IMG/VR virus record: IMGVR_UViG_3300013307_000671
Span: 70,909 to 134,908 of that record
Source: a virus
Lineage: Duplodnaviria > Caudoviricetes
DNA length: 64,000 bases
Direction: 5' to 3' (one strand)
The notes beneath the pieces are model-generated. The model was given only the letters and a program-made list of their open reading frames with translations, was not told where the DNA came from and searched no databases. Positions 650 through 63,784 of this stretch are shown one piece after another. Made by a program: the position numbers and the translations under genes. Within the stretch, counting starts at the first letter, position 1, and each line of letters starts with the position of its first letter.

Positions 650-678
650 AGTATACATTATTGTCATATTAAAGACAA
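650..678 (-). promoter_or_regulatory. sigma70 promoter with two opposed operator-like motifs (TTGTC-N8-GACAA)
   Basis: TTGTCT-17bp-TATACT on minus strand; TTGTCATATTAAAGACAA at 661-678. Confidence 0.7.
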
Positions 679-688
679 CAATTTCCTT

Positions 689-1216
689 TTAAAACCAGCA
701 AAAAATACAAGAAAGCTCTTTGTGAAATCGTTTTACGGAGGCTGCCATGTTATTCCTTTTTGCCAATACATGATAAAAATATTTAGCTCGCATCTCGCAT
801 TGATTAATAGTGTTTTTCTCAAAGTAATCTGGAATAGAAGCTTCATCATCGAAACGCCATACATCCACCGCAACAAACTCTTCTAACCCCTTACGCTTTT
901 CCTCCCAATGATAGAAAACACCATCATCCGCAATATATTTTACCAGTCTGACCTTACCAAGATTAAGCAACACTTCCATGCTTATATCTCGAATGTCCGT
1001 TGCTGTTAGGCATTTTTTAATGTAATCTTCTGCCCAACTCTTATGATGAAAATTCATTTTTACATCAACAAGCTCAAGAGTATCATCCAGGCTTTTTGTG
1101 AACTCATAACGCGTTCTCTTTATCGCCTTCCAGCGTTTAAACAAAGAGCCTGTCATATATTCAATATGATAACCATCATTATTTTTTGCTACGCGAAGCT
1201 GATTGAATAATGCCAT
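689..1216 (-). CDS. hypothetical protein, paralogue of 1300-1785
   Basis: Shared L.N.LR...GY.I.Y...FKRWK and DDGVFYH.EEK motifs. Confidence 0.8.
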   Translation of the reverse strand: MALFNQLRVAKNNDGYHIEYMTGSLFKRWKAIKRTRYEFTKSLDDTLELVDVKMNFHHKSWAEDYIKKCLTATDIRDISMEVLLNLGKVRLVKYIADDGVFYHWEEKRKGLEEFVAVDVWRFDDEASIPDYFEKNTINQCEMRAKYFYHVLAKRNNMAASVKRFHKELSCIFCWF

Positions 1217-1299
1217 AATATTCGCCTCTATTATTTTGTGCGCTATAATATCAAAATATGGTTAAATATACAACGAAAAAGAGGCCGGAGCCTCTTTAT

Positions 1300-1785
1300 T
1301 TAACATGGCATACTTTCATGGACTGAAGCACGTTGGGCTTCGTATCTCAAAATCATTCTAATGTATACTTCAGCCTTATTTAACACTTTATCTCGGATAT
1401 CTACACATTCATTCTCTTCATGAGTCAGACGCCATGCCTCAGCCGTCAACCACTTCTCACAAAAAGATGTCTCTTTTTCTTCAACATGATAAAACACGCC
1501 ATCATTCGTAGTGTATCTGACGAGGCGAATGTTTTGGCGAGACTGTAAGACCTGAACGGATACGCTTTGCAGATCCATCATAGTAACACGCGTTCTTACG
1601 TATTCCTCCGCATCTTCTTGTGTATCAAGAATGACTCGCAGAGGCAACACATCAAACCCATAAATACACGGATCGCCGTATTGATTCTTACTCAGCGTCT
1701 TCCAGCGTTTAAACCATCCACCAAAATACTGTATTTTATAGCCATGCTTACATTCTCTTGCGCGAAGTTCATTATATAATGGCAT
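1300..1785 (-). CDS. hypothetical protein, paralogue of 689-1216
   Basis: ORF, RBS AAGGTG, paralogy. Confidence 0.8.
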   Translation of the reverse strand: MPLYNELRARECKHGYKIQYFGGWFKRWKTLSKNQYGDPCIYGFDVLPLRVILDTQEDAEEYVRTRVTMMDLQSVSVQVLQSRQNIRLVRYTTNDGVFYHVEEKETSFCEKWLTAEAWRLTHEENECVDIRDKVLNKAEVYIRMILRYEAQRASVHESMPC

Positions 1786-1824
1786 GTTTTCACCTTAAAG
1801 AGGCCTCCCAAAAGAGGCTATTGA

Positions 1825-2190
1825 TTAGACGTTTTCCAGATACACCAAGCGGTCTTCTTTCGGCGTTTCAAGCACAGGAATAACCGTCAGAATCTCAGTA
1901 AGACGTTCCGCATGTTCTTTAAAGAAACGCATCTTACCATTAGGATAACGCAGGACATCTTTACCTTCAATTTGAAAAGCAACAACACTGTCATCCGCAT
2001 AAAAAAACGAAACACAGATACTCACTGAATGCCTGATAGCGTCTGTCTCAAAACCATGCTTCAGTAAGCTATAAAATACGGGCGCATAATCTTTCCCCAC
2101 CAGAAAATATTTCTGGCTAGGCTTAAGCTTAGCCATCTCACGCAAAAACTCAGCTAACACGCCCTGATTCGTATACTCAATCATAATCAT
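1825..2190 (-). CDS. hypothetical protein
   Basis: ORF with RBS GAGGA and own promoter. Confidence 0.75.
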   Translation of the reverse strand: MIMIEYTNQGVLAEFLREMAKLKPSQKYFLVGKDYAPVFYSLLKHGFETDAIRHSVSICVSFFYADDSVVAFQIEGKDVLRYPNGKMRFFKEHAERLTEILTVIPVLETPKEDRLVYLENV

Positions 2191-2211
2191 TCCTCTCTAC
2201 AAGATAAAAAG

Positions 2212-2240
2212 AGTATAGCATTTCTCCATATTAATGACAA
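2212..2240 (-). promoter_or_regulatory. sigma70 promoter in which the motif TTGTCA is the -35 box
   Basis: TTGTCA-TTAATATGGAGAAATGC(17)-TATACT. Confidence 0.8.
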
Positions 2241-2277
2241 CAAAAAAGAGGCGCTAGCCTCTTTTTCTCCAGTCAGG

Positions 2278-3552: not shown

Positions 3553-3553
3553 A

Positions 3554-4180: not shown

Positions 4181-4278
4181 GTGTTTACCTATAGTGTGAA
4201 GTAACTGTTTTGTTTCGATAGAAAGATTATATGACAACATTAAGTGAACCGCAAGAGAAATCTTGCGGTTTTTATAGA

Positions 4279-5065: not shown

Positions 5066-5130
5066 ATCCTCTCAGATTAATGACAATATGATATCACACG
5101 ACATTATGAAATAAAAGCATTATCTGCGCA

Positions 5131-6079: not shown

Positions 6080-6111
6080 TTTGACAATCCCATTCTCGTT
6101 TCGATAAAAAC

Positions 6112-6140
6112 AGTATAGGCTTTAATGACAACAACGTCAA
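6112..6140 (-). promoter_or_regulatory. sigma70 promoter with motif inside the spacer
   Basis: TTGACG-TTG-TTGTCA-TTAAAGCC-TATACT, then TTTTATCGAAACG. Confidence 0.85.
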
Positions 6141-6189: not shown

Positions 6190-6684
6190 TTAGGGCATCT
6201 TTACTTCGTCATCTTTGACTTTCTCAACTGTTTTCCCGTCCGGCTTCACTTCTATCACACGTTCTGAGGGAAACTTGAATGAAGCGTATCGGAGCAGCCA
6301 TAAAGAACCACATAATACCAGAATGCCTACGCAGTAAAACACAATAACTCTGAAATCTTCGCCATGATCGGTAATCAGGCCAATCAGATGACGCGTCATA
6401 GCCGTTATAGCAATGTAAATGATAAAACGGATAGGTAGATGGTTTGTCTTGAAGTAAACACCTACCATTGCGCCTAACTCAAGATAAATGAACAGCGTTA
6501 GCACGTTTTCAATGCCCGGCTTGCCCATATCCAAAACATGACACAACTCAATGATAGACGCCCAAATAACGACACCACCAATCATGAACAAGCCGAGATA
6601 ATGGAATGTTCCGATCAGCGCATTTCCAGAAAAGTCTACCCACTCCTTAATCTGACTACCCTTAGCCTTCAAGTTTTCCATCAT
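6190..6684 (-). CDS. psiE: phosphate-starvation-inducible PsiE-family membrane protein
   Basis: 4 TM helices; LFIYLELGAMVGVYFKTNHLPIRFIIYIAITAMTR matches the PsiE signature. Confidence 0.8.
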   Translation of the reverse strand: MMENLKAKGSQIKEWVDFSGNALIGTFHYLGLFMIGGVVIWASIIELCHVLDMGKPGIENVLTLFIYLELGAMVGVYFKTNHLPIRFIIYIAITAMTRHLIGLITDHGEDFRVIVFYCVGILVLCGSLWLLRYASFKFPSERVIEVKPDGKTVEKVKDDEVKMP

Positions 6685-8005: not shown

Positions 8006-8068
8006 ATTCCTGCCTCTCTTTCAATACAAACATTATCACCTATAATGACAATAAAAAGCAACTGCTTT

Positions 8069-8278: not shown

Positions 8279-8366
8279 ATCGAAACTTCCCGTATCGTTG
8301 ATTTAATGACAATATATCAGTTGTTAGCGTTCTATGCAAGGTTTTTTACTTCCGGGACGGACGACC

Positions 8367-10868: not shown

Positions 10869-10999
10869 AAAGAGTTTTCCTTTTAAGTAAGTGATTCATT
10901 ATAGCAGAAAGGCATCATTAATGACAATAATTATCTTCATTAAAACAAAAAAGCCACCCTGCTGGATGGCCTTTTAATTCTTATTTATAATCCTGAGTA

Positions 11000-14955: not shown

Positions 14956-15840
14956 TTAATGAGCTTTTCGCCCCATCATTTTTAGCACCAGATCATGAAT
15001 CAACACAACTACAATACCCACTACCAAAGCCACTACCGCATTTCCGCCCATTGAGACCAAAGAACCCGCCCAGCCTGCCGGAGAAATATGCGTGATAAAC
15101 TCAGCAACCGGATGAAGGCCATGAACAATGATGCCACCACCCACCAAAAACATCGCCACCAGACCAATCAGCGACAGGGCTTTCATCAACCACGGCACCA
15201 CGTTAATAAAACCACGACCAACCAGCTTTGCCACCGCTGATTTTTTAGCATCCAGCCAGAAACCAATATCATCCAGTTTTACGATCAGAGCCACAATACC
15301 ATACACAAATACGGTAAAGCCTACGCCTAAAATACTCAGTGCGATGATCTTCTGCAGCAGCGGATAAGCGCTAATTGCACTTAAGGAAATCACAATAATC
15401 TCAGCCGAAAGAATAAAGTCAGTTCTGACCGCGCCTTTAATCTTTTTCTTCTCTTGCTTGAGCATCTCTTCTTTAGAAAGCTCCAGGTTTGCAAGATGTT
15501 GCTCCTGATGCGCCTGAACCTTTTCTTTATGGAAAAACTTCTCTTTGAGGTTTTCCACACCTTCAAAACATAAGAAGGCACCACCTACCATCAGCAGAGG
15601 GATCATTAACCACGGCGCAAATACGCTAATCAGCAGTGCAGCAGGCACCAGAATCAGCTTGTTAATCAGCGATCCCTTAAATACACCCCACACCACAGGA
15701 AGCTCACGATTGGGCTTGACGCCAGAGACCTGCTCAGCATTTAACGCAAGGTCATCACCTAACACACCGACCGTCTTACTCGCCGCCGTCTTAGTCATCG
15801 TCAGAATGTCATCCAGAACCATTAACAGTCCACCAACCAT
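14956..15840 (-). CDS. yedI: inner membrane protein YedI (DUF808 family)
   Basis: GVLGDDLALNAEQVSGV..NRELPVVWGV.KGSLINK, IKGAVRTDFILSAEI, AMFLVGGGIIVHG match enterobacterial YedI. Confidence 0.9.
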   Translation of the reverse strand: MVGGLLMVLDDILTMTKTAASKTVGVLGDDLALNAEQVSGVKPNRELPVVWGVFKGSLINKLILVPAALLISVFAPWLMIPLLMVGGAFLCFEGVENLKEKFFHKEKVQAHQEQHLANLELSKEEMLKQEKKKIKGAVRTDFILSAEIIVISLSAISAYPLLQKIIALSILGVGFTVFVYGIVALIVKLDDIGFWLDAKKSAVAKLVGRGFINVVPWLMKALSLIGLVAMFLVGGGIIVHGLHPVAEFITHISPAGWAGSLVSMGGNAVVALVVGIVVVLIHDLVLKMMGRKAH

Positions 15841-15961
15841 TTGCTTTTCCTCAGTTATTTAAGTCCAGTGATTATAGCGAAACTTAAACGAAAAGACAAC
15901 AAGATTTACGTTTCTACAAATAAAAAAGACCGCAGAGCGGTCTTTTCTTTATTAACGTGTT

Positions 15962-17777: not shown

Positions 17778-17848
17778 ATCCGTTCTCTTAGTGATTTATC
17801 TTGTGATATGAGCCTATTATATCTCAAGCCCACAATAAAGACAACAAT

Positions 17849-19264: not shown

Positions 19265-19362
19265 TTTGATTTATCCTTTGTAAGCAGTGAATCTATTATA
19301 TGACAACAATACCTCGCACGCAACAAAAAAGCCACCCGAAGGCAGCTTTTTATTGTTTTCTG

Positions 19363-45123: not shown

Positions 45124-45302
45124 TTTTTACGTCTCTTTAAAGTTTAATCACCCGTTTCAATAAAAACAGTATAGGTTTTAATGACAACAATAGCAAGCTT
45201 TTTCTTACCACATTAAACAAAAAAGAGGCCTGAGCCTCTTTCTTTTTTTTCTTACTAGATTACAACAGTTTATTAAAACAAAAACCGCCCGGAGGCGGCT
45301 TA

Positions 45303-45881: not shown

Positions 45882-45954
45882 AACTGATACCTCATTAATA
45901 TAAGTTTTTTTATTATAGTTTTTTTCAGCATGCAGTACAATATTCTTCAACAAT

Positions 45955-45977
45955 AAAAAACCGCCCGTAGGCGGCTT
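45955..45977 (-). terminator. intrinsic terminator, cUACGg loop
   Basis: AAGCCGCC-TACG-GGCGGTTTTTT. Confidence 0.8.
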
Positions 45978-45984
45978 CTTTTTA

Positions 45985-46428
45985 TTAATCTCGTTCACTA
46001 TATGCGTAATCAAGCTGCCCAGCCAACTCTTCCGGCTCCCAAGCAACATGGTCGCCCTGGTCTTCGATAATCCCTTCTGGATCAACAAAACTCACCGATT
46101 TATAACCGGGGAATCCCGCATCAACCACATCCTCAAAGCGGATTTCCATACGGCCTGACTCAGCCAAATATGTGCTTGTCTGACCTTCTTTGTCAACGTT
46201 ATGAATCACTCCGTTATCATCAACAAAGACATACTTGCCTTTAAGATGGTCAGCAATACTCTCCATCGCTGCAGCTACTGATCCAAACACCGGATAAACG
46301 CCTGAATCAATCTCAATATTTTCTTCCGACACCTTCACTTTCTCAGAAGATAAAGTGATCGTATCGCTATCAGCAAAATAAGTGTGAATCTGCGTATTTT
46401 CCAGCACAAAAAATAAAGGACTCATCAT
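45985..46428 (-). CDS. acidic hypothetical protein
   Basis: RBS GAGGA. Confidence 0.8.
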   Translation of the reverse strand: MMSPLFFVLENTQIHTYFADSDTITLSSEKVKVSEENIEIDSGVYPVFGSVAAAMESIADHLKGKYVFVDDNGVIHNVDKEGQTSTYLAESGRMEIRFEDVVDAGFPGYKSVSFVDPEGIIEDQGDHVAWEPEELAGQLDYAYSERD

Positions 46429-46561
46429 AGCCACTTCCTCAGCAATCTCAGTTTCAATACAGATAGTATAGATTTTTATGACAACAAAAGCAAGCTTTTT
46501 AAAAGCGACTTAAATGAAAAAGCTCTCCTTTAAAATACAAAGCGAGAGCCTTTCTATAATC

Positions 46562-46915
46562 TTATTCGCAGTCCTGCAAAATGGTTAAATGCTCTTCAAG
46601 ACTTCCTTGAATATCTATCTTAAATAACTCCCCTTCAATCTCCGCAAAGATATAAGGCGCACTATGCCTGCTGCTATAATAAATACCATATCCTTTGAAA
46701 ACCAATGTGCTATATGCGTAAACTTCCAGATACTGAAGATCTTCTTTATTTAATGGCTTACGATCTTTTTTTATGAAGGAAATATTATGACGGCAGCTAA
46801 TCTCACCTTTATCACCGACTTTTATATTCCAGCTATTGATAACATCAATGTTATCATGCGAAATCTCTTTTAACATCACACCATTACTTGCGAAGATCAT
46901 AACTTTGTTTTTCAT
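46562..46915 (-). CDS. hypothetical protein
   Basis: RBS AAGGA. Confidence 0.75.
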   Translation of the reverse strand: MKNKVMIFASNGVMLKEISHDNIDVINSWNIKVGDKGEISCRHNISFIKKDRKPLNKEDLQYLEVYAYSTLVFKGYGIYYSSRHSAPYIFAEIEGELFKIDIQGSLEEHLTILQDCE

Positions 46916-46964
46916 TTTTAATCCTTAAGTTAGCTGCCCATAGCATAGAGCATCAGATGTTTAG

Positions 46965-47318
46965 TTAAAAAAATTCGTTTTCAGCTCTGATTTCAAGCTC
47001 TTTGAAATAACCTGTCCGGTCAAGCTTCTGATAAGCCTCTGAGCCATACGCCGGATCAATCTCGTTCCAGTGTGCCAGATTCAACGCACCACCGTTATCC
47101 AGATGCGCCGTTATCTTATCAATACGCTTTTTCTGAATATCTGAAATCTCTTCCAGGCTCATCATTACCGTTGTTAAATCCGAATCGTTCAGAGCAAAAC
47201 GACGACCTTCAACATCCTCAGCAACAACAATAACTGATGTTTCTACCACTTTACCACCATCTTCGTTAAAACCATTCTCAAAGAGGTAATCCATAGTGAA
47301 AATATCAAGCTCTTTCAT
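46965..47318 (-). CDS. acidic hypothetical protein (W....PAYGS.AY motif)
   Basis: RBS AGGAG. Confidence 0.8.
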   Translation of the reverse strand: MKELDIFTMDYLFENGFNEDGGKVVETSVIVVAEDVEGRRFALNDSDLTTVMMSLEEISDIQKKRIDKITAHLDNGGALNLAHWNEIDPAYGSEAYQKLDRTGYFKELEIRAENEFF

Positions 47319-47411
47319 CGCGATCTCCTGCTTTCAATACCATTGATTATAGCAGAACGCCTTTATTGTCACAACCTTTATATGAAAAAACCGCCCGAAG
47401 GCGGCTTGTTT

Positions 47412-47960
47412 TTAAGCTTCGTCGTTAAGCTCTAACCAGCTATGATAATGTTTATCATAGCTTTCAATCTCATAACCTTCAAAGCCCTTCTTACGCGCAT
47501 TTTTCATGCCCGCTTTTGTCGCATTGAGCTTATGCCCCAGCGGTGTTCCAACAAAATAGGTTTCAAAACGCAACATCTTGGCACCCAAACCATCAGCCAG
47601 TTCGAGAACCGCTCCAACGTTATCAAACGTTTTTACTACCTCAGACTTTAATAATACCTCAACACGAATAATCTCAAAGGAGTCCTTTTTGAAAGGGCCT
47701 GGCTTCTCTTCAAGACGACTCAACAAATCATAAATAGCCTTTTCAGCCTCTTTTACTGAGACGAAACGTAAAACTTCATACTCATTTTCATAATCATTAA
47801 TAGCTTGAACCACCAGATCCCAAAAACCTTTCTCACGAAGATAAGCATCAGAAAAATCATGACCGTAATGCTCTACATCCTTTAAAAATAACTCAGGACG
47901 ATTTTTAAGACGCACCACAAAAAACTCTTTATTACCACTCATTTTAATCGCTTTAGCCAT
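47412..47960 (-). CDS. hypothetical protein
   Basis: RBS GGAG. Confidence 0.8.
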   Translation of the reverse strand: MAKAIKMSGNKEFFVVRLKNRPELFLKDVEHYGHDFSDAYLREKGFWDLVVQAINDYENEYEVLRFVSVKEAEKAIYDLLSRLEEKPGPFKKDSFEIIRVEVLLKSEVVKTFDNVGAVLELADGLGAKMLRFETYFVGTPLGHKLNATKAGMKNARKKGFEGYEIESYDKHYHSWLELNDEA

Positions 47961-48088
47961 TTTTACTACTCCAGTAAGATATTAGTAGAATGCCTTAACT
48001 CAATGAAACCACTATACACACTTATGACAACACATTCAAGCTTTTTCTTAAGCCAAACAAAAACCGCCAGTAGGCGGTTCTGTCTGCT

Positions 48089-48937
48089 TTATTTCTTTGA
48101 GATCCTGCCTCTCTTAAAATCAAGTGTCAGCCCTTCTCCTCGATAATCCTGAAATGTTTTACCATCACTCCTGTTAATCAACAGCAGTGGAATCTGCATA
48201 TAACTCTCTTTCGACTTATGAAAAATATCATGATGCGCCAGCAGAGATGTCATCGAAGCATAACCTACCACCGCACCCACCTTCTCAAACAGTGAAAAGT
48301 ATTTTATCAGGCTCTCACGGTCTTCCAGATCCATAAATAAAATATCTGTGTCCCTCAAACTCGCACGGTCCTCTAAAGTCTTTACCTTCCCCGTTAGACG
48401 TCCAAATGTCTGGTTTTCCTTAAAAAGCCTGATATCCCCAATCTGATAGCCAAACGCCTTTATCTCAGAAATCAATAATGCCGTCTTTTCCTCGTTCGAT
48501 TCATCCGGGTTAATCAATATGTCCAGCTTCTCAACATCCTCAGCCAAGCCTTCGCTGATAATCTGCTCCATCAAATTTTTAGGGAAACTCACCCTTCCAT
48601 CTTCCAGATAATGATAGCCAAACTCTTCATGATTTTTCTGATAAGCCTTCCTTAAACGCTCACTCTCCAGCTTTCTCACATTTTCCGGCTCAGCCAGCCT
48701 ATCCCTTACTTTAGCTAAAACCTTCTTGTATTCCACATCTTCTTGCTCAAGAATGTCTATTCCACCTTCAACATCAATAAGTGCAGCATCACCATTTAAC
48801 ACCCGACCTACCTGATACTCATTAATACCCACAAGACACTCCGATAAAGTCTTTTCAGCTTCATCGAAATATCCCTGCAGCATTTTATCACGCACCATGT
48901 TCTGAATCGGATTTGCTCTGGTTTGAAAGTGGCTCAT
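48089..48937 (-). CDS. hypothetical protein
   Basis: 282-aa ORF, RBS AAGGA. Confidence 0.8.
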   Translation of the reverse strand: MSHFQTRANPIQNMVRDKMLQGYFDEAEKTLSECLVGINEYQVGRVLNGDAALIDVEGGIDILEQEDVEYKKVLAKVRDRLAEPENVRKLESERLRKAYQKNHEEFGYHYLEDGRVSFPKNLMEQIISEGLAEDVEKLDILINPDESNEEKTALLISEIKAFGYQIGDIRLFKENQTFGRLTGKVKTLEDRASLRDTDILFMDLEDRESLIKYFSLFEKVGAVVGYASMTSLLAHHDIFHKSKESYMQIPLLLINRSDGKTFQDYRGEGLTLDFKRGRISKK

Positions 48938-49036
48938 CTTTTATCCTTATTATTGTTAATACCTCATTATATCACGCTTATGACAACCATATCAAACCTT
49001 TTGGACATATAAAAAAACCGCCCGGAGGCGGCTCTT

Positions 49037-49633
49037 TTAAAGACCTTTCTGTGTCATTCCCACTGGAACAAAATCTACAGGCAAAGCATATTTTTCCGAC
49101 CAGCCCAACGCATTAATCAGATCAGCTATCTCTTCCTTCACTGTCGAGGCAAAGTTATTCTGAATAAAGTTATCAAATGCTTTCTTATGAGGATAGTTCA
49201 TGAACTGAACAGGCATCACAGCTACCGTCTCACTCATAAAATGCTCAGCATCTGCAGCACCCTTCACAGCCTCAACCATACGCTCTGGAGAAACCTCTAC
49301 CGTCATTAAATGCGTTACCCGGCTCTTAGTCTGGTGAGAAGACACCAACCGCGCAGCAGCAATTTCAGCCTCACTTAATGTCAGGCCAATCTCTTCCCGA
49401 CATTCACGGCTTACCGCTTCTTTCAGTGTCTCACCCGACTCAACTTCGCCACCTACAAAACCCTTCACGCCGTCCCAACGCTGCAGCATCAGCACCAATG
49501 GCACCACCGTTTCCCGCGCCTCAGCAGAAAGACCTTCATAATCCTTCCACACCTTACTCTCTGACACCAAAGCCACAAACACCGCTTGCGCCATATTTTC
49601 AGGATTGCTTCCCAACGCGATTGGCTTAATCAT
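49037..49633 (-). CDS. Nudix hydrolase, NUDT16/X29-like
   Basis: Nudix box GGEVESGETLKEAVSRECREEIG preceded by LM.QRWDG..GF; SSH..RV.H and F..N.F motifs as in NUDT16. Confidence 0.85.
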   Translation of the reverse strand: MIKPIALGSNPENMAQAVFVALVSESKVWKDYEGLSAEARETVVPLVLMLQRWDGVKGFVGGEVESGETLKEAVSRECREEIGLTLSEAEIAAARLVSSHQTKSRVTHLMTVEVSPERMVEAVKGAADAEHFMSETVAVMPVQFMNYPHKKAFDNFIQNNFASTVKEEIADLINALGWSEKYALPVDFVPVGMTQKGL

Positions 49634-49736
49634 GAAATACTCCAAATAGGTTAGTCTTTTATCCAGCTATACTTTCATAACATCAGATCAGTATAGCTGC
49701 TAATGACAATACTCGCCAGTCTCTTCTTTCAATCTT

Positions 49737-49931
49737 TTAAAATATATCTTCGTTAGTATCCCACCATGATCCACTACTGCGCCCATAATCCGAACGGCTT
49801 TTTTCCTGGACTTCTTTCACTTTTCTCTGATAATCAGCGTCCTTATTAAACCCACCACGATTGGCCTTTCCTACATCTGCCCATCCATCATGACTCACGC
49901 CATTACGGTCTTTTTTGGATGTCATATACAT
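49737..49931 (-). CDS. small hydrophilic protein
   Basis: RBS GAGGT, motif-bearing promoter. Confidence 0.7.
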   Translation of the reverse strand: MYMTSKKDRNGVSHDGWADVGKANRGGFNKDADYQRKVKEVQEKSRSDYGRSSGSWWDTNEDIF

Positions 49932-50082
49932 TATACTTACCTCTCTATCAAGAAATGGTTTAATCTTATTTTTTCCTACTCAATGAAAAAAGTATACCTT
50001 CAACCAATCTTAATGACAACTCATTTTTGCCTTTTATTATTAACTCGATAAAACAAAAAAGCAGCCCGAAGGCCGCTTTTCT

Positions 50083-50685
50083 TTACTTCTTCTCTTTAAG
50101 CTCAGCCAGACGCTTCTTATACGCCGCCTTTACCTCATCCCAATCAGGCTTATCACTCACCACAGATCGTGGCTCAAAATCAGGATACGCCGCCTTACTT
50201 TCAGCTTGACGCTCTTTCATCACACCTTCCAGATAAGCGAAATCTTGCTGCATCATCTCAAAGGCGTTCGCTTCCAGCACAAAACCATAGGGAGCCAGCA
50301 GCTCTAACAACTCAGGATTGTTCTTCTGAGCCTTAACCACTTTTGCGTATTCCTTCAACGCATAGTCCAGCGCAGCATACAGCTTAGCCAGATACACATA
50401 ACCTACATCGTTGCGCACGATCACATACGCACAGCCGAAATCTTTTAATACACCCATCAGGGCAGATTTCACATTATGCAGATTATCCATATCCTTCGCC
50501 ATCGCATTCAGACGCTTAGTGAACTTCTGCGTCACCTTCTTCTTCTCAATGTCGTTCTCACCCACCGACACAAACTCACTCTCAAATACCGCCTGAGAAT
50601 GCAGCATAAAACGCTCATGACCTACCAGCGCCGCCGCCAACGACAGAACCGCTACCTTCGATGAATCTACAGAAACTTTTGACAT
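50083..50685 (-). CDS. hypothetical protein
   Basis: Start MSKVSV downstream of promoter. Confidence 0.8.
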   Translation of the reverse strand: MSKVSVDSSKVAVLSLAAALVGHERFMLHSQAVFESEFVSVGENDIEKKKVTQKFTKRLNAMAKDMDNLHNVKSALMGVLKDFGCAYVIVRNDVGYVYLAKLYAALDYALKEYAKVVKAQKNNPELLELLAPYGFVLEANAFEMMQQDFAYLEGVMKERQAESKAAYPDFEPRSVVSDKPDWDEVKAAYKKRLAELKEKK

Positions 50686-50879
50686 TGTTTTTTCTCTTTT
50701 AGTTAAATCATAGCCCGCACAGCAAGCTCTCAGTAAAAACGAGTATATCAACAATACGACAACACATCAAGATAAATCTTTAATGACCAGACTCTCTTGA
50801 AAAACTTTTACATCCCTCTTTATTTTTCAACCGATCCATTTCTTAACAAAAAAGCCGCCCGGAGGCAGCTCTTTTAATC

Positions 50880-51107
50880 TTATACTTCTACATATTGTTC
50901 AAATAAATTGCGGTAAACAAGCTTAATATTCCCGCTCTTGTCTTTCAAAATAGCATGACCTTTCTCATCAAATCCTTCAAATGTTACGTTTGAATAAAAA
51001 GCATAACGAACGACCTGACCTACTTTTAATTCAATTTCTTCAGTCTTCGAATTTTTGCTTTTCTTATTACGCACGTTTATTTTAAAAGTCTGAGCTGCAG
51101 TAGTCAT
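50880..51107 (-). CDS. small SH3-like hypothetical protein
   Basis: RBS GAGGTG. Confidence 0.75.
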   Translation of the reverse strand: MTTAAQTFKINVRNKKSKNSKTEEIELKVGQVVRYAFYSNVTFEGFDEKGHAILKDKSGNIKLVYRNLFEQYVEV

Positions 51108-51124
51108 GTTTTCACCTCATCAGT

Positions 51125-51164
51125 TTAATGACAATATTATACCCATTACCATTTCTTAATACAA
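51125..51164 (-). promoter_or_regulatory. sigma70 promoter with motif downstream of -10
   Basis: TTGTAT-17-TATAAT-A-TTGTCATTAA. Confidence 0.8.
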
Positions 51165-51206
51165 GCATTATAAAATATTAAACCACCCGAAGGTGGTTCT
51201 TTTATA

Positions 51207-51413
51207 TTAATGGTATTCTACTTCGCTTACTTTTTCAAAACCCGCCTGAGCAATCGCTTCTTCCATCTGATCAACCGTAACGTTAATCAGTTTCACCCAC
51301 ATATAACCTTCAGCACAATGAATATTCACCGCAAAACCAAGACGAGTCGCACAACGGATATCCTGACCTTCAGGTTTCTTTACCAGGCAACGCAGAACTT
51401 GAGCTTCTTTCAT
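51207..51413 (-). CDS. small hypothetical protein
   Basis: Complete module. Confidence 0.75.
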   Translation of the reverse strand: MKEAQVLRCLVKKPEGQDIRCATRLGFAVNIHCAEGYMWVKLINVTVDQMEEAIAQAGFEKVSEVEYH

Positions 51414-51535
51414 TTTTTAATCTCTCTTTTGTTTCGATAAAAAGAGTATACGCCTATCACGGATTAATGACAACAATTATTTTACTAAATCGATTTCTCA
51501 TTCATAAAAAAACCGCCCGGAGGCGGCTTTTTTAT

Positions 51536-52069
51536 TTATTCCTCACGAATCGCATAAGGATCATCGTTATCCTCTAGCTCATCTTCGTCTTCCTCATCCC
51601 AACGGTCATCATCCCAGCTATCATCATCTTCTTCTTCCTGATCAGACCCATCAGTAACAATGGTCAGATGACCGAATGTAAACGTGCCATCTTCATCACG
51701 GTCAACGCGGAAGTCTTCAGGGAAGAGAATCACCTTCGCATGACCATCAGCATCAAGCTTCTTAGCCTGAGCAATCAAATCCGCCGACAGCAGTTGAACT
51801 ACGCCAAGAATACCCGCATCTACACTGTATTTGTTGCCAATATTATCAGAATACTGACCATCACCATGCGCCGTGTTCGCGTAAAACGCAGAAAATACTT
51901 TACGACGACCCGCCTTGATATCTACAGCTTTACCATCATTATCAAAACCTAACACCAGATCATCATAAACCTTATCGGTTTTGTCCGTCAGTAAATAGCA
52001 CAGATCTCCGACATAATACGTGCCAGCAGGCATCAACGCAGTTTTACGAGCAGTAATCGATACAGTCAT
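51536..52069 (-). CDS. hypothetical protein, family B (PAG.YYVGDLCY...TA.GDG...VDAG..G), acidic tail
   Basis: Three paralogues: 51536, 52176, 56731. Confidence 0.85.
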   Translation of the reverse strand: MTVSITARKTALMPAGTYYVGDLCYLLTDKTDKVYDDLVLGFDNDGKAVDIKAGRRKVFSAFYANTAHGDGQYSDNIGNKYSVDAGILGVVQLLSADLIAQAKKLDADGHAKVILFPEDFRVDRDEDGTFTFGHLTIVTDGSDQEEEDDDSWDDDRWDEEDEDELEDNDDPYAIREE

Positions 52070-52175
52070 TGTCTTCTCCAGTTAAAATAGTCAACACGCC
52101 TATCTCTCAATAGCAATACTATAGCACAACTCTTTATAAAATGACAACAAAAAGGGCTTTTCAGCCCTTTTCTTT

Positions 52176-52595: not shown

Positions 52596-52673
52596 CGTCT
52601 CTCCCGTCAAAGTGCAGTAGTTTTTATGACTCAATAAACACACTATATCATAACACTTTATTAAATGACAACA

Positions 52674-54658: not shown

Positions 54659-54787
54659 AATCTCTACCTCATTCGTTTCAGTCAAAATATTATATGACAA
54701 TAACTTGTCCAAGCCAAGCTGTTTCTTCCAATAAAAAAGCCACCCGGAGGCAGCTTCTCTTTAACAGGCTATATAATCATTCAATGA

Positions 54788-54982: not shown

Positions 54983-55098
54983 CGCTAAACCCTCTTCTCT
55001 TTGATAATGCCATTATATGACAACAATAAAATACAAGCAAGACATTTTAATAAACTCTTCCCATAAAAAAGCCCCCGTCAGGAGGCTCTTTTCAAATC

Positions 55099-55792: not shown

Positions 55793-55843
55793 TTCTATAT
55801 CCTCAGCAATAATGTGTTTCTATGCCACTATTTTATAATAGCA

Positions 55844-55853
55844 TTGTCATTAA
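55844..55853 (+). promoter_or_regulatory. operator-like motif in inverted orientation within a promoter spacer
   Basis: TTGTCATTAA on + strand inside a minus-strand TTGCTT...TAAAAT promoter. Confidence 0.7.
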
Positions 55854-56045: not shown

Positions 56046-56291
56046 TTAGAAACAATCGTAAAGTTTGTTCTGAACGTTCACCAGAGCAATATCAATATTC
56101 GTCATACCTTCCTCATAACGAATCTTACCATTCTTCTCTTTCTTTACATACAACGTAGGATCTTCCATCGCACACAAATGTGCCATGTTGTTGTATTTGT
56201 TAACATGACGGTTAATCGCACTCCAGATGCCAGCACCTTTCTCAATCTCGCGCTTAACGTTGTCTTTCAGAATAGTAAAGTTGCCGCTCAT
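56046..56291 (-). CDS. hypothetical protein, paralogue of 35241-35510
   Basis: RBS GAGGA, shared motifs. Confidence 0.75.
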   Translation of the reverse strand: MSGNFTILKDNVKREIEKGAGIWSAINRHVNKYNNMAHLCAMEDPTLYVKKEKNGKIRYEEGMTNIDIALVNVQNKLYDCF

Positions 56292-56351
56292 GTCCGCTTC
56301 CTCATCAGGTTTTCAAATATTATATGACAACATTAAACGCAGCGCAAGCTT

Positions 56352-56600
56352 TTAATAGCACTCACCAGAAGGATAGTTACTTTCAACTTTTAGCTTGAGC
56401 AACTCTCCTTTAGGGAAACGACCTTTAAGATAAGCAACCGCCTCTTTATACGTCCTAAAACCTAAGTCTTTTGCCAATGAATGCTGACCCGATAAAAGTT
56501 CATAACCTTCACGATACCAGAACAATCCCAGCACCTTATGCTCCACCAAATAAGAAATGCCTTCGCTGCTAGACATCTGCACTACTCGCATCTTTTTCAT
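56352..56600 (-). CDS. hypothetical protein (Y.VE...LGLFW family)
   Basis: RBS GGAG. Confidence 0.75.
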   Translation of the reverse strand: MKKMRVVQMSSSEGISYLVEHKVLGLFWYREGYELLSGQHSLAKDLGFRTYKEAVAYLKGRFPKGELLKLKVESNYPSGECY

Positions 56601-56730
56601 CTCAGACTCCGCCTCTATCGCAATACCTATATTATATGACAATACCAAGTGTTTCTCCACGCTTTTCTTAAAATAAAAAAGCCACCCGCAGGTAGCTCTT
56701 AATCTATTCCATTATAATAACCAACAGTGA

Positions 56731-57228
56731 TTATCTTGTGTTTATCTCAATATCACCAAAGTTAAACACACCGCGTTTCGATGACACCTCAAACGCCTCA
56801 ACAAAATCAATCACCTGACCACTACCTCTCGCCTCCACTGCTCTGGCGCTGGCCTCTAAATCACTATCCGTCAACTCCACTATGCCAATCAATCCAGCAT
56901 CTACAGAATAAGAACGCCCTTGATTATCACTAAATCCACCATCACCATGCGCCGTCATACCAAAATACGCTAAGAAAGAAATATCCTCACATTCAACGAA
57001 ACGCTTCTTCCTGCGATAATCCGTCCCGCAAATATAACCACAAACATAATGGAAATAAATACTTTTCAATACTCCGTAGTTCTCACCTTTATCCAGCAAA
57101 TAACATAAATCACCTACATAATAACGCCCAGCAGGAAATAGCTTATTCGCAGCTTTGATCGACACCGACTTATATTTATCGCTATCGTCAGTTAACTCTA
57201 TCTCTTCCCAATCGTCATATTGACTCAT
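56731..57228 (-). CDS. hypothetical protein, family B
   Basis: PAGRYYVGDLCYLL, TAHGDG, VDAGLIG. Confidence 0.85.
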   Translation of the reverse strand: MSQYDDWEEIELTDDSDKYKSVSIKAANKLFPAGRYYVGDLCYLLDKGENYGVLKSIYFHYVCGYICGTDYRRKKRFVECEDISFLAYFGMTAHGDGGFSDNQGRSYSVDAGLIGIVELTDSDLEASARAVEARGSGQVIDFVEAFEVSSKRGVFNFGDIEINTR

Positions 57229-57252
57229 ACTTTATCCTCTTAGCTGTTAATA

Positions 57253-57963
57253 TTATTCGCCTTTAGCTTTCTTCTCAAAAAATGCCAGACGTTCTACCAT
57301 CTTCGCCTGATAACATGCCCTCGCCTCAGCTTCATCCAAAAACACCTCGTGATACATACAACCATCACTCAGCCCGCCATCATTATCCGTATTTAACTGC
57401 AGCTCCTCACGCTCTCCACCCACATCAAGACGAAACGCCCCGGTAAATCTCACTTTATTACCATTCACCAGACTATACTTGATATCAAAAATCTCTCCTG
57501 TATATAGCCCTTCCTCCAGTAAGTTCTTCTCCAGAACCACCAGATACACCTTATCGCCCACTTTCAGCTCAGGATATTCTATCTCATACGTCTTCTCTTT
57601 ATCCAAATAACTAACCGTACCACTCTCCACATGAGCAAGCTTCTTCCTCAGCCTGCGATCCGCTTCCTCTATCATGCCCTTAGCCACAACATAATCCTGC
57701 CTACGCGCTCCCCATGACAGCAAACGTAATATCACAGGCTTACTCTCATAAGCCGCAACCTCACGCTCCGCATTCTCAGTCTCTTCACGATAACGCTCCA
57801 GCGCCTTACCCCGAAAATCCTCAGCAGCCTCTTCCGCCGTCAAAAAAGCCTCATAAGGGAAATAACCCGTATGGTAATGCTCTTCTACCGCAAAACCCTT
57901 CAACGCATTAATCACAAACACCGTTCCAAACTTTTCTTTCATCTGATCATGTGTGTAAGTCAT
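57253..57963 (-). CDS. hypothetical protein
   Basis: 236-aa ORF, RBS GGGGGA. Confidence 0.8.
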   Translation of the reverse strand: MTYTHDQMKEKFGTVFVINALKGFAVEEHYHTGYFPYEAFLTAEEAAEDFRGKALERYREETENAEREVAAYESKPVILRLLSWGARRQDYVVAKGMIEEADRRLRKKLAHVESGTVSYLDKEKTYEIEYPELKVGDKVYLVVLEKNLLEEGLYTGEIFDIKYSLVNGNKVRFTGAFRLDVGGEREELQLNTDNDGGLSDGCMYHEVFLDEAEARACYQAKMVERLAFFEKKAKGE

Positions 57964-58451: not shown

Positions 58452-58593
58452 CAGATTTCTCTCTCGGTTGACTTCATTTCAATAAAATCAGTATAGCATT
58501 ATAATGACAATAATAAAAGCTTTTAACGGCGACTTAAATGAAAAGGCTCTCTCTTAAAAACAAAAGAGCCACCCGCAGGCAGCTCTTCCAATC

Positions 58594-58908: not shown

Positions 58909-59040
58909 GATGTTTTCCTTTAAAAGTGATTTAAGTTCGTTCTCTGTCTCAATGAAAACAGTATACCCCTATCATCACTTAATGACAACACTTATTTTCA
59001 GTTATCCATAAAAAAAGCCACCAGCAGGCGGCTTCTCTCT

Positions 59041-59445: not shown

Positions 59446-59606
59446 GTTAGCACCCGTTAGTTAATGAATGTCTCGCTTCAGTAAAATCATTATATGACAA
59501 CACAATATCGCTTTCAAGCTTTTTCTTCAAAAGAATAACTTCTAATGAGAAGCCTCTCTTAAAACAAAAAAGCCACCTCGCTGGTGGCCCTTCACACATT
59601 ATTATA

Positions 59607-59882
59607 TTACGCGGCTTTCTTCGCCTTCTTACGCATCAGACCTTCACAAAACTTAATGCCGTCAAATGTCATCGACACCATCGAAAAACCAAACAGATCA
59701 ACGTTCACCTGAATAATGTTCTTCGCCTTCAGATTCATCAGAACTGTATTCAGTTGGTTCTGCTTCAACACCTCACCACCCACCAACACCTCTTTCGGAA
59801 AGCTCACGTTCTTCTTCTTCTGAGCAAAACCAAATACCGCTTTTAGAACTGAAGTTTCTAAAGTAGAGATAGTTGTGATCAT
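59607..59882 (-). CDS. winged-helix DNA-binding protein, paralogue
   Basis: Highly similar to 58594-58908. Confidence 0.65.
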   Translation of the reverse strand: MITTISTLETSVLKAVFGFAQKKKNVSFPKEVLVGGEVLKQNQLNTVLMNLKAKNIIQVNVDLFGFSMVSMTFDGIKFCEGLMRKKAKKAA

Positions 59883-60005
59883 GACGCATTCCTTAAAAAG
59901 TGAGGGTGATTTCGTGCTCTGCTTCAATAAAAACAGTATAGCGAAACCTACGCTTAATGACAATACATATTTCGCCCTTTTCTCACTTTTTTAAACCTAC
60001 CTGAA

Positions 60006-60475: not shown

Positions 60476-60547
60476 GTCTTCACCTTTCATTTCAATCAGG
60501 CATATCGCCCTTCAATGAAAACAGTATAATGATTAATGACAATACCG

Positions 60548-61677: not shown

Positions 61678-62241
61678 CTATTTGGATAAATCAATCTTAT
61701 GACCATCCACCTCTACAATACTCTTCGTCTTACCTTTACTGATCTCTACCCGGTAATAATCCGAACAGATACAGAAAACATCGCTTTTTCGCAATGCCTC
61801 TAAAATGTTATCAACAGTCAGCTTGGCCCGGATATCCTTCAGCGATTTATACACACCCGATACATCCTTGTTATAGTTATACACCTTTCTCGTCCTGAAA
61901 TAACTTACATACATCTTCAGGCCTTGCGCTAACTTCTTACTGTAATTTTCTTCACGACGATCTACACTGAAGCCATCATTTACATAAAGAATGCCCGCAG
62001 TTAATGCCAACGAACTGCTCCGATAACTCACCGCAAAATCATCCGTATTATCATAGCGATTTTTACACGCCACAACTTTATCCAAAAATGCCTTTGCCGT
62101 TCCGTGAACGTTAGACATCGCCATTATATCAGAAAAGTTCATCACACCTTCTTCTTTTGAAAAAGAAAAACCATTCATAATCGCCGCACTCGAACCGCTT
62201 CGACTCATACTCACCGTACCACTATTTGACATACTCAGCAT
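61678..62241 (-). CDS. hypothetical protein, family A, with Ser/Met-rich N-terminal extension
   Basis: RBS AGGAG at 62241 and a second RBS AAGGTG before MNFSD. Confidence 0.75.
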   Translation of the reverse strand: MLSMSNSGTVSMSRSGSSAAIMNGFSFSKEEGVMNFSDIMAMSNVHGTAKAFLDKVVACKNRYDNTDDFAVSYRSSSLALTAGILYVNDGFSVDRREENYSKKLAQGLKMYVSYFRTRKVYNYNKDVSGVYKSLKDIRAKLTVDNILEALRKSDVFCICSDYYRVEISKGKTKSIVEVDGHKIDLSK

Positions 62242-62363
62242 GTTTTTCTCCTATAGGAATATTATCCCACTTTGGATTACTTTTCGGGATTATTATCCCA
62301 TTATATTAAAACTCTTTATCCTGCACAACAAAAAAGCCACCCGGAGGCAGCTTCTTTATTCTC

Positions 62364-62774
62364 TTACGCTTTCACCGCATAAGGCCTTTTGTAATGTCCA
62401 AACTGCAGATCGACATAATGACCTACATCATGGTAATCCCTCATCAGATCACTGTTGTTGTAGTTGTCCAGATTCAACGCCGCAACAACCTTCTCCAGAA
62501 TCTCACGCGCGCCTTCATCCTTAATATCACGATCAAGACGACCCAAGTGATGCACCTCTACATGACCCAACACTCCATCAAAACGACGATAATCACCCTG
62601 AGCATCACACGCCTCTTTACCAAAAATCTGCTCCAGCGTTAACGGCGTGCTCTTGATCGTCATCACAATGCCCGAAGCATTCCGAATCGCAAAGCTCGCC
62701 TTCCAATCTTTCGGCAATACAGCCTTTACCGCCGCAACAATCTTCGCTTTATGCTCTTTGCTCAAGTAAGCCAT
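62364..62774 (-). CDS. LPD29-like conserved protein, paralogue of 5705-6079
   Basis: C-terminal NY.NSD.M.DY.DV..YV. Confidence 0.8.
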   Translation of the reverse strand: MAYLSKEHKAKIVAAVKAVLPKDWKASFAIRNASGIVMTIKSTPLTLEQIFGKEACDAQGDYRRFDGVLGHVEVHHLGRLDRDIKDEGAREILEKVVAALNLDNYNNSDLMRDYHDVGHYVDLQFGHYKRPYAVKA

Positions 62775-62898
62775 TTTCTTCTTCCCGCTCTCGTTTCGAT
62801 AAAAGAAGTATACGCCTTAATGACAATACGCGCAAGCACTTTTTTATCATAAACACAAAAAGCCACCCGGAGGCAGCTTCTTTTATCTTTGCTGGTGG

Positions 62899-63177
62899 TT
62901 AGCCCTTATTCAGCGCTTTACCAATCACACGTTTCGACCCAGTGATAGCTACACCATTAGGAACCTCGCCTTTCTCCGCACACTCCACAAAGTGCTGCAA
63001 CGCAGCCAGCAGCTCAGGAGCCGTTCCCGCAAGGATACCATTATGAATCGCTTCCTCATCACAGCTTCCCGCCGTGCTCAGGCTAAAACCACTTTTGCCT
63101 AATACGACATCTTTACCGTTAGCGCCAACCAGATCACCATTCACTTTCTTCCACGGACCCGCAGTAAACTTGCTCAT
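62899..63177 (-). CDS. phage hypothetical (FT.GPW...APELL.AL family)
   Basis: MSKFTAGPW...APELLAAL. Confidence 0.8.
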   Translation of the reverse strand: MSKFTAGPWKKVNGDLVGANGKDVVLGKSGFSLSTAGSCDEEAIHNGILAGTAPELLAALQHFVECAEKGEVPNGVAITGSKRVIGKALNKG

Positions 63178-63225
63178 CTTTTACCTCGTAAAAAATCTTA
63201 AATGAAATGGCTCTCTTTAAAAGAC

Positions 63226-63414
63226 TTAAATCTCTTCGCCGCTGTTAATAAAGTCTACGCTAACGCCACATTGCGCAAACGCTTCTTTCGCTCCGTGAGC
63301 ATAAGCTAAACTCTCTTCATACTCTCTCGATTGGAAAACCTCTTTATGCCCAATCTCTACATACCAGCAATCCTTACCACCATCAAAGCCAATCAGTATT
63401 GCGACTTCTTTCAT
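63226..63414 (-). CDS. small hypothetical protein
   Basis: RBS GAGGTG. Confidence 0.75.
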   Translation of the reverse strand: MKEVAILIGFDGGKDCWYVEIGHKEVFQSREYEESLAYAHGAKEAFAQCGVSVDFINSGEEI

Positions 63415-63463
63415 CTTACACCTCTGTCAATAAATAAAGGCCGCTAAGCAGCCCCCTGTTTTA

Positions 63464-63652
63464 TTAAATACGCTTATCGATTGTCATCCCAACCTTCAGC
63501 GCATCCAAATCTGACTTGTTTTTCTCAACGTGCATGAAATCCACGATGCAGTTGCGTAAGTCCGAACGACCCTTACCAACCATAACCCACGCTTTACCAC
63601 TGTAGTGAGGCTTGATTTCAGTAATCTCTTTAATCTCGATCCAATCGTTCAT
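63464..63652 (-). CDS. small hypothetical protein
   Basis: Start MNDWI, RBS AGGA. Confidence 0.7.
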   Translation of the reverse strand: MNDWIEIKEITEIKPHYSGKAWVMVGKGRSDLRNCIVDFMHVEKNKSDLDALKVGMTIDKRI

Positions 63653-63784
63653 CGCTCTATTTCCTATCACTGTTTCTTTTCGATAAAAGAAGTATACGCT
63701 TTAATGACAATACGTGCAAGCACTTTCTTTTTTATTTCAACATAAAAAAAGACTGGCTAAGCAGTCTTCTTTTATTTGCGATTA

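Follow-up and report, generated by a model that had tools for sequence, protein, structure and literature searches.

What reads the nine-letter word TTGTCWTWA, which recurs in promoter after promoter of a large virus-classed DNA element, and to what effect? The window analyzed here is a stretch of 64,000 nucleotides (positions 70,909 to 134,908 of IMG/VR record IMGVR_UViG_3300013307_000671), forming the right-hand 64 kb of one contig of 134,908 bp (G000) that carries a provirus label in IMG/VR and a CheckV completeness estimate of 64%. A first-pass annotation of the window described the word as overlapping about 50 σ70 promoters at shifting registers, and proposed that one element-encoded repressor silences more than 100 accessory genes through it. 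We compared the contig with G001, a 341,648-bp viral contig of 30.6% G+C that was the sole record returned by a class-A promoter-pattern scan of viral contigs. Our analysis suggests that the conserved unit, the non-palindromic 11-mer TGTTGTCATTA defined by the information-content lines of each register, is probably an asymmetric operator for one element-encoded, sequence-specific DNA-binding protein acting as a repressor. This reading is built on sequence comparison.

The word is far more frequent than expected and lies mostly between genes. Crude greedy calling yields 259 open reading frames (ORFs), which together cover 85% of the contig and leave 14.6% of the DNA intergenic. The minus strand carries 228 of them and is hereafter called the coding strand. 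The window contains 36 exact copies of TTGTCWTWA, 33 on the coding strand and three on the plus strand, versus 4.16 expected from 100 dinucleotide shuffles (standard deviation 2.33, maximum 12), none of which reaches 36. Under the same crude gene calls, 30 of these copies lie between genes, and the remaining six fall within over-long ORF starts. Across the whole contig, 52 of 72 copies are intergenic, and TGTTGTC is the most intergenic-enriched 7-mer, with 46 of 50 coding-strand copies between genes (38 of 46 in G001). G001 contains 104 copies of the 9-mer versus 46 of its reversed control. The first-pass annotation had staked its proposal on enrichment over shuffled sequence and on a comparison of intergenic with coding DNA, and both are borne out by these counts. 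The literature searches made here turned up no description of the word or of such a regulon, the one with the 9-mer returning unrelated primer matches only.

Within the intergenic DNA, the word is a feature of promoters. Promoters were called using an ad hoc σ70 matrix with a score of at least 12, and all promoter positions are predictions. Inspection of each of the 36 exact copies with its flanks revealed a -10-like hexamer beside every one. The looser core TTGTC[AT] has 50 direct copies within 49 σ70-like promoters of the window: 17 abut the -10, 15 lie in the spacer, 14 serve as the -35, and four lie downstream of the -10. These 50 copies include 31 of the 33 exact coding-strand 9-mers, the other two (8043 and 8304) standing beside weaker -10-like hexamers. 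The three plus-strand copies are inverted words in minus-strand promoters, located in the spacer (20753 and 55844) or over the -10 (31927). A motif promoter is present within 140 nt upstream of 44 of the 135 window ORFs, a plain promoter upstream of 25, and neither upstream of 66; the word itself lies ~25–110 nt from start codons. The near-confinement to promoters and the figure of about 50 promoters, both put forward in the first-pass annotation, agree with this survey.

The position of the word relative to the -10 is restricted to a few registers. When the first base of TTGTC[AT] is compared with that of TATA[ACG]T in the contig, offsets peak at +23/24 (14 + 6), +14/15 (16 + 4), and +6/7 (14 + 3), with fewer than three counts at all remaining offsets in the range -60 to +60, whereas the reversed-word control gives a single trivial peak, from TATACTGTT. 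Inverted cores cluster at offset -5 in the form TATAATGACAA. There are five registers in all: as the -35 (+23/24), in the spacer (+14/15), abutting the -10 (+6/7), after the -10 (-7), and inverted (-5). The claim that the motif floats across promoters thus holds for the several positions and both orientations, but the offset counts replace a continuous drift with a discrete set. A normal -35 (cTTG..) is found at the correct distance wherever the word is not itself the -35, that is, in the spacer, abutting, and downstream classes. Reading of the sequences also revealed letter sharing. TTGTCA stands in place of TTGACA or runs into the TAT of the -10, the end of the -10 supplies the T and A that precede the word, and the TTA end of an inverted copy falls inside TATAAT. 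The registers form a small, discrete set because the word fits a promoter only where its letters also serve as those of the -35 or -10.

Tandem overlapping σ70 promoters that use TTGTCA as their -35 were considered and rejected by eye, as the bases 16–18 nt downstream lack the second-position A of a -10. Because no second -10 lies at promoter distance from the word, overlapping promoters are not the explanation.

How could one word act from five positions? The site behaves like a repressor operator, and unlike a basal promoter element, because it is limited to about -37 to +10, in direct or inverted orientation, within near-consensus promoters. A protein bound in any of these registers would overlap the RNA polymerase footprint and would block initiation. 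In the mechanism we propose, the word would be built into strong σ70 promoter cores wherever its letters fit those of the promoter: as a TTGTCA -35, in the upstream half of the 17-nt spacer, with its 3′ end running into the -10 (TTGTCA followed directly by TATAAT), starting one base past the -10, or inverted with its TTA end forming part of TATAAT. An activator site is disfavored because the motif promoters are already near the σ70 consensus, with mean scores of 15.1 versus 14.5 for plain promoters in the contig and 14.9 versus 14.4 in G001. Copies paired within 45 bp are rare, with one pair in the contig (window 661-678) and three in G001, so recognition is probably by a monomer. A single such protein would shut ~50 window promoters together (69 in the contig and 85 in G001), with 100-odd small accessory genes behind them. 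As for the repressor and operator of the first-pass annotation, core-promoter confinement, multiple registers and orientations, conservation of the word, and near-consensus promoters are all observed, and what we infer is binding, repression, the identity of the protein, and the timing of its action.

The relative provides orthologous copies of promoters in the contig. G001 is collinear with the contig over its 189–340 kb segment, at ~70% nucleotide identity (64–86% in patches), and 146 reciprocal-best protein pairs have a median identity of 53%. Its offsets coincide with those of the contig: -7 (12), +6/7 (8 + 4), +14/15 (16 + 4), +23/24 (6 + 3), and inverted -5 (17), and two G001 promoters combine a -35 copy with a copy after the -10. 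Among the 146 orthologous pairs, 28 have the word in both promoters, 13 and 8 have it in one of the two, and 21 combine two plain promoters. The register is kept in 19 of the 28 and partly kept in one, while the register or orientation has changed in eight; all three inverted-class pairs are conserved. In 15 same-register orthologous promoter pairs, the word is identical at 135 of 165 positions (82%), the -10 at 81 of 85, the -35 at 38 of 60, and the rest at 273 of 545 (50%). Within each register, the 11-mer is near-invariant, and the adjoining spacer bases vary. On this comparison the word is under selection of its own, because it is more conserved than its flanks in a part of the promoter that σ70 does not read.

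This conservation bears on a reading that dispenses with a dedicated factor, in which the word is the inherited sequence of a few promoter-terminator cassette families spread by duplication and homologous recombination, and the registers record cassette ancestry. Promoters of one register do share more than the word, namely the -35 context, a TATACT -10, and a downstream TTTATYGAAAC, and terminator hairpins are enriched in the 14 kb at window 38000-52000 (47 versus 9.1 expected). In addition, 36 of the 48 listed breakpoints in related strains, counted as joints and loose ends, are intergenic, although intergenic DNA makes up only 22% of the stretch compared; these strains are represented by contigs, and repeats also break assemblies. 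Cassette ancestry alone nevertheless leaves unexplained why the word stays constant inside each family while the adjoining spacer bases vary, why it stands at 82% versus 50% for other non-hexamer positions across orthologous promoters, and why it recurs in five promoter contexts and inverted, with 8 of 28 orthologous pairs keeping the word and changing its register. We regard this explanation as rather unlikely.

Could the word instead switch promoters on? It might be the site of an element-encoded σ-like or σ-appropriating factor, as at the MotA box or the late promoters of T4, serving a second, later mode of transcription. The co-orientation of 33 of the 36 copies with the genes and the spacing of ~25–110 nt from start codons would suit such an element, as would the phage-like nature of the DNA with its tRNA arrays and HNH endonucleases. 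Its distance to the σ70 -10 varies, however, inverted copies are conserved (3 of 3 pairs), and copies of the spacer and abutting classes have no further hexamer at a promoter-like distance. Moreover, no σ region 4 match was found beyond a weak one on a 68-residue protein described below. A positive element is thus unlikely, slightly more so than inherited cassettes. A MotA_activ search gave no match but is uninformative, its control likewise matching nowhere.

A host regulator could also link expression of the element to host physiology through the same word, for example PhoB acting at a single CTGTCAT-like half-site. TTGTCAT with its A/T tail does resemble one half-site of a Pho box, a PsiE-family gene lies in the window, and the word is common to relatives of 40% and 31% G+C. 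Conversely, tandem half-sites 11 bp apart occur at chance level (4 versus 4.3 expected, with at most one mismatch) and at none of the motif promoters, in line with the first-pass remark that the canonical 11-bp tandem is mostly absent. Pairs at any spacing within 45 bp are as scarce as reported above, the registers include no fixed activator position, and the -35 elements are good, all of which makes a site for PhoB or another conserved host regulator very improbable. Least probable of all, the word would be a DNA-level signal outside transcription, such as a recombinase crossover site for cassette swapping or a priming or nicking site, for which breakpoints do cluster at promoter cassettes, some a few bases from the word (39834, 44449, and 51464), whereas no tyrosine recombinase, integrases included, was found in either record, the register of the word is exact relative to the -10 and not to cassette borders, and repeats also break contigs as an assembly effect.

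We therefore return to the operator, and to the part of the genome it occupies. There are 69 motif promoters in the contig (135 kb) and 85 in G001 (341 kb), and they are concentrated regionally. In G001, motif and plain promoters number 14 versus 113 in the first 200 kb and 71 versus 72 between 200 and 341 kb. Along the contig, the word is present in 4 of the 15 promoters of the first 20 kb, increasing to 14 of the 19 in the last 20 kb. The word marks one regulon or arm and is not a general promoter feature.

In the window, the word serves as the -35 on the minus strand at 670-680 (TGTTGTCTTTA; -10 at 650-655), 2232-2242 (2212-2217), 15891-15901 (15871-15876), 17836-17846 (17816-17821), 24726-24736 (24706-24711), 50011-50021 (49991-49996), 51465-51475 (51445-51450), 58980-58990 (58960-58965), and 59955-59965 (59935-59940). 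Three further copies have an 18-nt spacer, at 10919-10929 (10898-10903), 52139-52149 (52118-52123), and 52663-52673 (52642-52647), and a weaker copy lies at 35912-35922 (35893-35898).

Minus-strand copies in the spacer are found at 6123-6133 (-10 at 6112-6117), 28700-28710 (28689-28694, with a weak second copy as the -35 at 28709-28719), 38435-38445 (38424-38429), 38813-38823 (38802-38807), 39824-39834 (39813-39818), 44460-44470 (44449-44454), 45179-45189 (45168-45173), 46476-46486 (46465-46470), 48022-48032 (48011-48016), 48978-48988 (48966-48971), 49701-49711 (49690-49695), 60534-60544 (60523-60528), 62818-62828 (62807-62812), and 63702-63712 (63691-63696). A weaker copy lies at 23997-24007 (23985-23990), and the copy at 8043-8051 is in the spacer of a weaker promoter with the -10-like hexamer GATAAT.

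Minus-strand copies abut the -10 at 4229-4239 (-10 at 4226-4231), 19298-19308 (19295-19300), 31487-31497 (31484-31489), 35543-35553 (35540-35545), 40371-40381 (40368-40373), 40773-40783 (40770-40775), 41327-41337 (41324-41329), 42682-42692 (42679-42684), 43666-43676 (43663-43668), 54692-54702 (54689-54694), 55015-55025 (55012-55017), 56322-56332 (56319-56324), 56634-56644 (56631-56636), and 59492-59502 (59489-59494). At 25013-25023 (25009-25014) and 26390-26400 (26386-26391) the word stands 1 nt before the -10, and at 58502-58512 it precedes two overlapping -10 candidates (58498-58503 and 58490-58495).

Just downstream of the -10, the minus strand carries copies at 5078-5088 (-10 at 5088-5093), 29956-29966 (29966-29971), and 51126-51136 (51136-51141), with a further downstream copy at 37161-37171 (37172-37177) and one at 8304-8312 just past a weaker -10-like hexamer. 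The inverted words, read on the plus strand, occupy the spacer of minus-strand promoters at 20753-20761 (-10 at 20740-20745) and 55844-55852 (55835-55840), and overlap the -10 (31932-31937) at 31927-31935. A plus-strand half-copy at 661-666 lies in the spacer of the promoter that uses 670-680, creating the direct and inverted pair TTGTC-N8-GACAA. One word copy, within window 21772-21797, is common to two divergent promoters: at 21789-21797 on the plus strand, it follows the plus-strand -10 (21782-21787) and lies in the spacer of the minus-strand promoter (-10 at 21772-21777).

The examples singled out in the first-pass annotation were all recovered in this survey, namely the motif as the -35 (2212-2240, 10900-10927, and 51446-51473), 8 nt before the -10 (6112, 39813, 44449, and 62807), abutting it (40368, 19296, and 42680), downstream of it (51125, 8303, and 5077), inverted (55844, 20754, 21789, and 31926), and as the double site at 661-678.

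Other conserved blocks accompany these promoters. A second block, TTTATYGAAAC, occurs just after the -10, at about +1 to +12, for instance at window 6098-6108, 44435-44445, and 62793-62803, and is present in 25 of 69 motif promoters versus 5 of 58 plain ones in the contig. Its possible roles include that of a leader, of a conserved initial transcribed sequence, or of a second site for a protein. A further over-represented promoter word, CTTGTGCAT, is located at the -35 (window 40390-40398 and 42701-42709, for example). Of the copies of TTGTGCA, 50 of 60 in G001 and 13 of 19 in the contig lie between genes. The word occurs mostly in plain promoters of G001 (39 of 185) and may be a further operator or define a family of promoters. 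Hairpins of a single family (GCCGCC-TCCG-GGCGGC followed by a T-run) end nearly every gene at window 38000-52000 and throughout, the T-run often meeting the next -35. The location of most joints and loose ends of related strains in these intergenic cassettes suggests gene swapping by recombination there.

Which protein might bind the operator? Our candidate is a conserved stand-alone winged helix of 68 residues, encoded on the minus strand at contig 59,536-59,739, ~11 kb to the left of the window. It passes the Pfam cut-offs of MarR_2 (31.0 bits, cut-off 27), TrmB (27.7, 25.6), MarR (26.0, 24.6), and HTH_24 (25.2, 21.9). In six-frame hidden Markov model searches of the contig and G001, MarR_2 has exactly one match per record, in this ORF, and HTH_3 and σ region 4 have no match in either record except weak ones on the same ORF. 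The protein is 69% identical to its syntenic G001 orthologue, exceeding 125 of the 146 reciprocal-best pairs. In its own promoter the word is inverted over the -10, an arrangement shared with G001 and with four relatives in metagenomes that represent two lineages; negative autoregulation would follow from it. The structure model contains three helices and a β wing. A single winged helix that contacts TTGTC through the major groove, with its wing on the A/T tail, would account for a site that is a lone asymmetric 11-mer. The protein belongs to a very small family: a word-indexed search gave three clusters, and of 1.84 billion representatives 27 proteins reach E ≤ 0.001. Its language-model neighbors are small stand-alone winged helices, mostly viral. 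The evidence that this protein is the regulator is circumstantial, and we treat it as a tentative lead.

Several observations weigh against a repressor acting at these sites, or against this protein as the repressor. Direct copies dominate (33 of 36), as they would for a directional promoter element; letter compatibility with the hexamers may account for this bias. The register pattern could be largely inherited from a few ancestral promoter cassettes spread by recombination. The true regulator could be encoded elsewhere, given that both records are probably fragments, or could be a host protein, and the Pfam scan of G001 covered only a minority of its small ORFs. The structure model is of modest confidence (predicted local distance difference test score 68.7), and in a fold search its best matches, the MarR-family proteins PefR and MexR, reach a template modeling (TM) score of ~0.6 at E ~0.01, with none at or below 0.001. 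The candidate's promoter is only one of the inverted-class promoters, which number five in the contig and 16–17 in G001, and about half of the promoters in that arm carry the word anyway. Finally, a second small helix-turn-helix protein, of 81 residues, is encoded at contig 50,470-50,715 (minus strand), adjoining SSB, with sub-threshold HTH_28, KorA, and Mor matches; it is 51% conserved in G001, has no promoter of its own, and is a second possible regulator.

Does a shared operator imply silent carriage? The first-pass annotation had drawn from it a temperate or plasmid lifestyle with release on entry or induction, a possibility that the sequence does not single out: a lytic-cycle repressor that shuts off an early, host-polymerase-dependent gene arm fits equally well. 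Profile searches of the contig and G001 gave no match to Phage_integrase, ParB_N, or Terminase_6N, and a search of both records for Gp23 (T4-type capsid) matched nothing, nor did its control. No virion or replication genes were identified by Pfam among 41 G001 ORFs of at least 330 residues, a set that left out five further ORFs spanning locus borders, or by PHROGs among 79 ORFs of at least 215 residues in the first 200 kb of G001. Near-identical DNA is present in sequencing runs labeled with single organisms and in plant, seed, soil, and groundwater metagenomes (15 studies and 22 runs listed, all assembled contigs), and its presence in the single-organism runs hints at, or is at least compatible with, stable carriage. 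Four of these runs, compared with the window, gave no transcript starts or ends. The uneven depth seen in two seed metatranscriptomes is not readable as expression, as it involves a related strain and possibly DNA. Identical or related proteins occur on contigs of 368,640, 470,741, 866,249, and 1,323,985 bp, and since such proteins lie on contigs of these sizes, the full genome may be very large.

The element as a whole has few recognizable neighbors. Megablast with 20 kb of the window matched no phage record, tblastn with a 614-residue contig protein matched no phage or plasmid record, two scans of representative bacterial genomes found no relative of the element, and an alignment-backed scan of viral contigs found none besides G001. 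A G001 protein gave only ~32% tblastn matches, in assorted phages. The window has 38–42% G+C and a strongly negative plus-strand GC skew, and an Rfam scan of it returned zero matches at gathering score. Taken together, the 135 kb and 341 kb consist almost entirely of small, one-directional, individually promoted genes, with no recognizable virion, replication, integration, or partition genes among those scanned. Stop-codon recoding was rejected as the cause of the small ORFs; only TAA read-through lengthens them, by fusing neighbors.

Pfam scans of 257 of the 259 contig ORFs (113 + 95 + 49; the winged-helix ORF was scanned separately) named almost none. The matches are PsiE, two metallophosphoesterases, DUF808, a Nudt16-like NUDIX protein, SSB, a SprT-like protein, MarC, an ankyrin protein, a lactonase, a 5′-nucleotidase, an RRXRR-HNH endonuclease, and a TnpB fragment. 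Three host-like accessory genes lie in the window, encoding the PsiE-family membrane protein (6190-6684), the DUF808 membrane protein (14956-15840), and the Nudt16-like NUDIX hydrolase (49037-49645). Two adjacent paralogous ORFs of 614 and 609 residues (28% identical; contig 40,472-44,242, minus strand) have no Pfam match; the 614-residue protein has 18 relatives in a large protein collection, two ~90% identical and the others 46–48%. The RRXRR-HNH gene (contig 56,099-57,836) has two copies in G001 (15.5–17.2 kb and 88.3–90.0 kb), with ~81% identical DNA versus 65–75% for the rest of the two genomes, and this high identity at non-syntenic places is as expected for a mobile homing-type gene. 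Eight tRNA genes lie at the left end of the contig (1,512-3,173 and 33,366-33,442) and none in the window, whereas G001 has arrays totaling 34 (170–190 kb and 298.5–300 kb). Both records contain repeated Met(CAT)-Leu(TAA)-Arg(TCT) sets, and two G001 tRNAs with anticodon CTA would read the amber codon, with no sign of recoding in ORF lengths. G001 also encodes a full-length MutS, an MCP-signal protein, an M49 peptidase, a TROVE/Ro-like protein, and a T4-type RNA ligase.

If the operator reading is correct, one small protein would be the key to keeping hundreds of accessory genes quiet or to timing their shut-off, and that protein and its 11-bp word would provide a handle for switching the whole arm and probing its uncharacterized genes. 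The regulon would also mark one arm of the element, a hint as to the sequence in which genes are expressed or DNA enters. Letter sharing would show how operators colonize many promoters without weakening them, and a compact, portable operator-repressor pair that works at five σ70 promoter positions would be a useful part for synthetic biology. In its boldest form, which we consider possible but doubtful, a minimal, probably monomeric 68-residue winged helix would govern a single-operator regulon larger than any so far seen on a mobile element, with ~70–100 operators per genome in five registers serving as the off-switch for a whole arm.

How does this regulon compare with known systems? By analogy, the closest known logic would be the C1 regulon of phage P1, followed by plasmid global repressors such as ArdK with its CUP elements. 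P1 C1 is a 283-residue repressor whose operators overlap promoters in varying positions and orientations. The P1 genome has 22 such operators with an asymmetric 17-bp consensus (PMC8546580). Both systems would thus pair one repressor, putative in our case, with an asymmetric operator at many sites across a large genome, and in both the sites overlap promoters at several positions and in both orientations, here in five registers and two genomes. Unlike the C1 site, the word described here is 11 bp long and of different sequence, its sites are three to four times as many (69 and 85 motif promoters per record), and the candidate protein is a 68-residue winged helix, compared with the far larger C1. 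No C1-type family was named in the general Pfam scans of 257 of the 259 contig ORFs, in which no dedicated C1 search was included.

Plasmids offer a second precedent, with KorA and KorB as the global regulators of IncP. The IncN protein ArdK binds CUP elements and its own promoter and is autoregulated (PMC6289460). ArdK resembles our candidate in being an element-encoded, autoregulated repressor of repeated conserved upstream sequences, which in the ArdK system serve leading-region and establishment genes. These plasmid regulons have a handful of sites versus the dozens found here, where no conjugation or ParB partition genes were recognized, and the likeness to KorA is limited to the sub-threshold match of the 81-residue ORF.

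The promoter cassettes themselves recall the PeSL of T4-type phages, described as a composite of terminator and strong early promoter flanking small ORFs, with indel ends in the cassettes (PMC4122927). The enriched terminator-like hairpins are a shared trait, as are the T-runs that lie at the -35 or overlap it (34 of 69 motif promoters). Most joints and loose ends are intergenic as well, a pattern that contigs broken at repeats may also produce. Unlike the sites studied here, PeSL are presented in that account as recombination substrates and not as carriers of a movable operator word.

At the level of sequence and fold, three comparisons are relevant. The Pho half-site, like the word in our proposal, is read by a winged helix. 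The most conserved Pho-box motif of E. coli is CTGTCAT (PMC4415409), which like our word has a GTCA-containing core followed by an A/T tail. The word differs from a Pho box in having no tandem repeat and no fixed position replacing the -35 (+23, +14, +6, -7, and inverted), with a good -35 present. The candidate resembles the MarR family in passing the MarR_2, MarR, and TrmB cut-offs and in its best fold matches. MarR proteins, however, are dimers of ~140–150 residues, whereas the 68-residue candidate, as modeled, has only three helices and a wing and lacks the N- and C-terminal dimerization helices; its sites are lone and asymmetric, in contrast to the palindromic or pseudo-palindromic MarR operators. 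T4 MotA middle promoters have a box that is fixed relative to the -10 and replaces the -35, unlike the several registers seen here and the good -35 of the spacer, abutting, and downstream classes. The present case differs from these systems in how many sites it has, in registers that share letters with the promoter, in the minimal size of the candidate protein, and in the uncharacterized giant element that hosts it.

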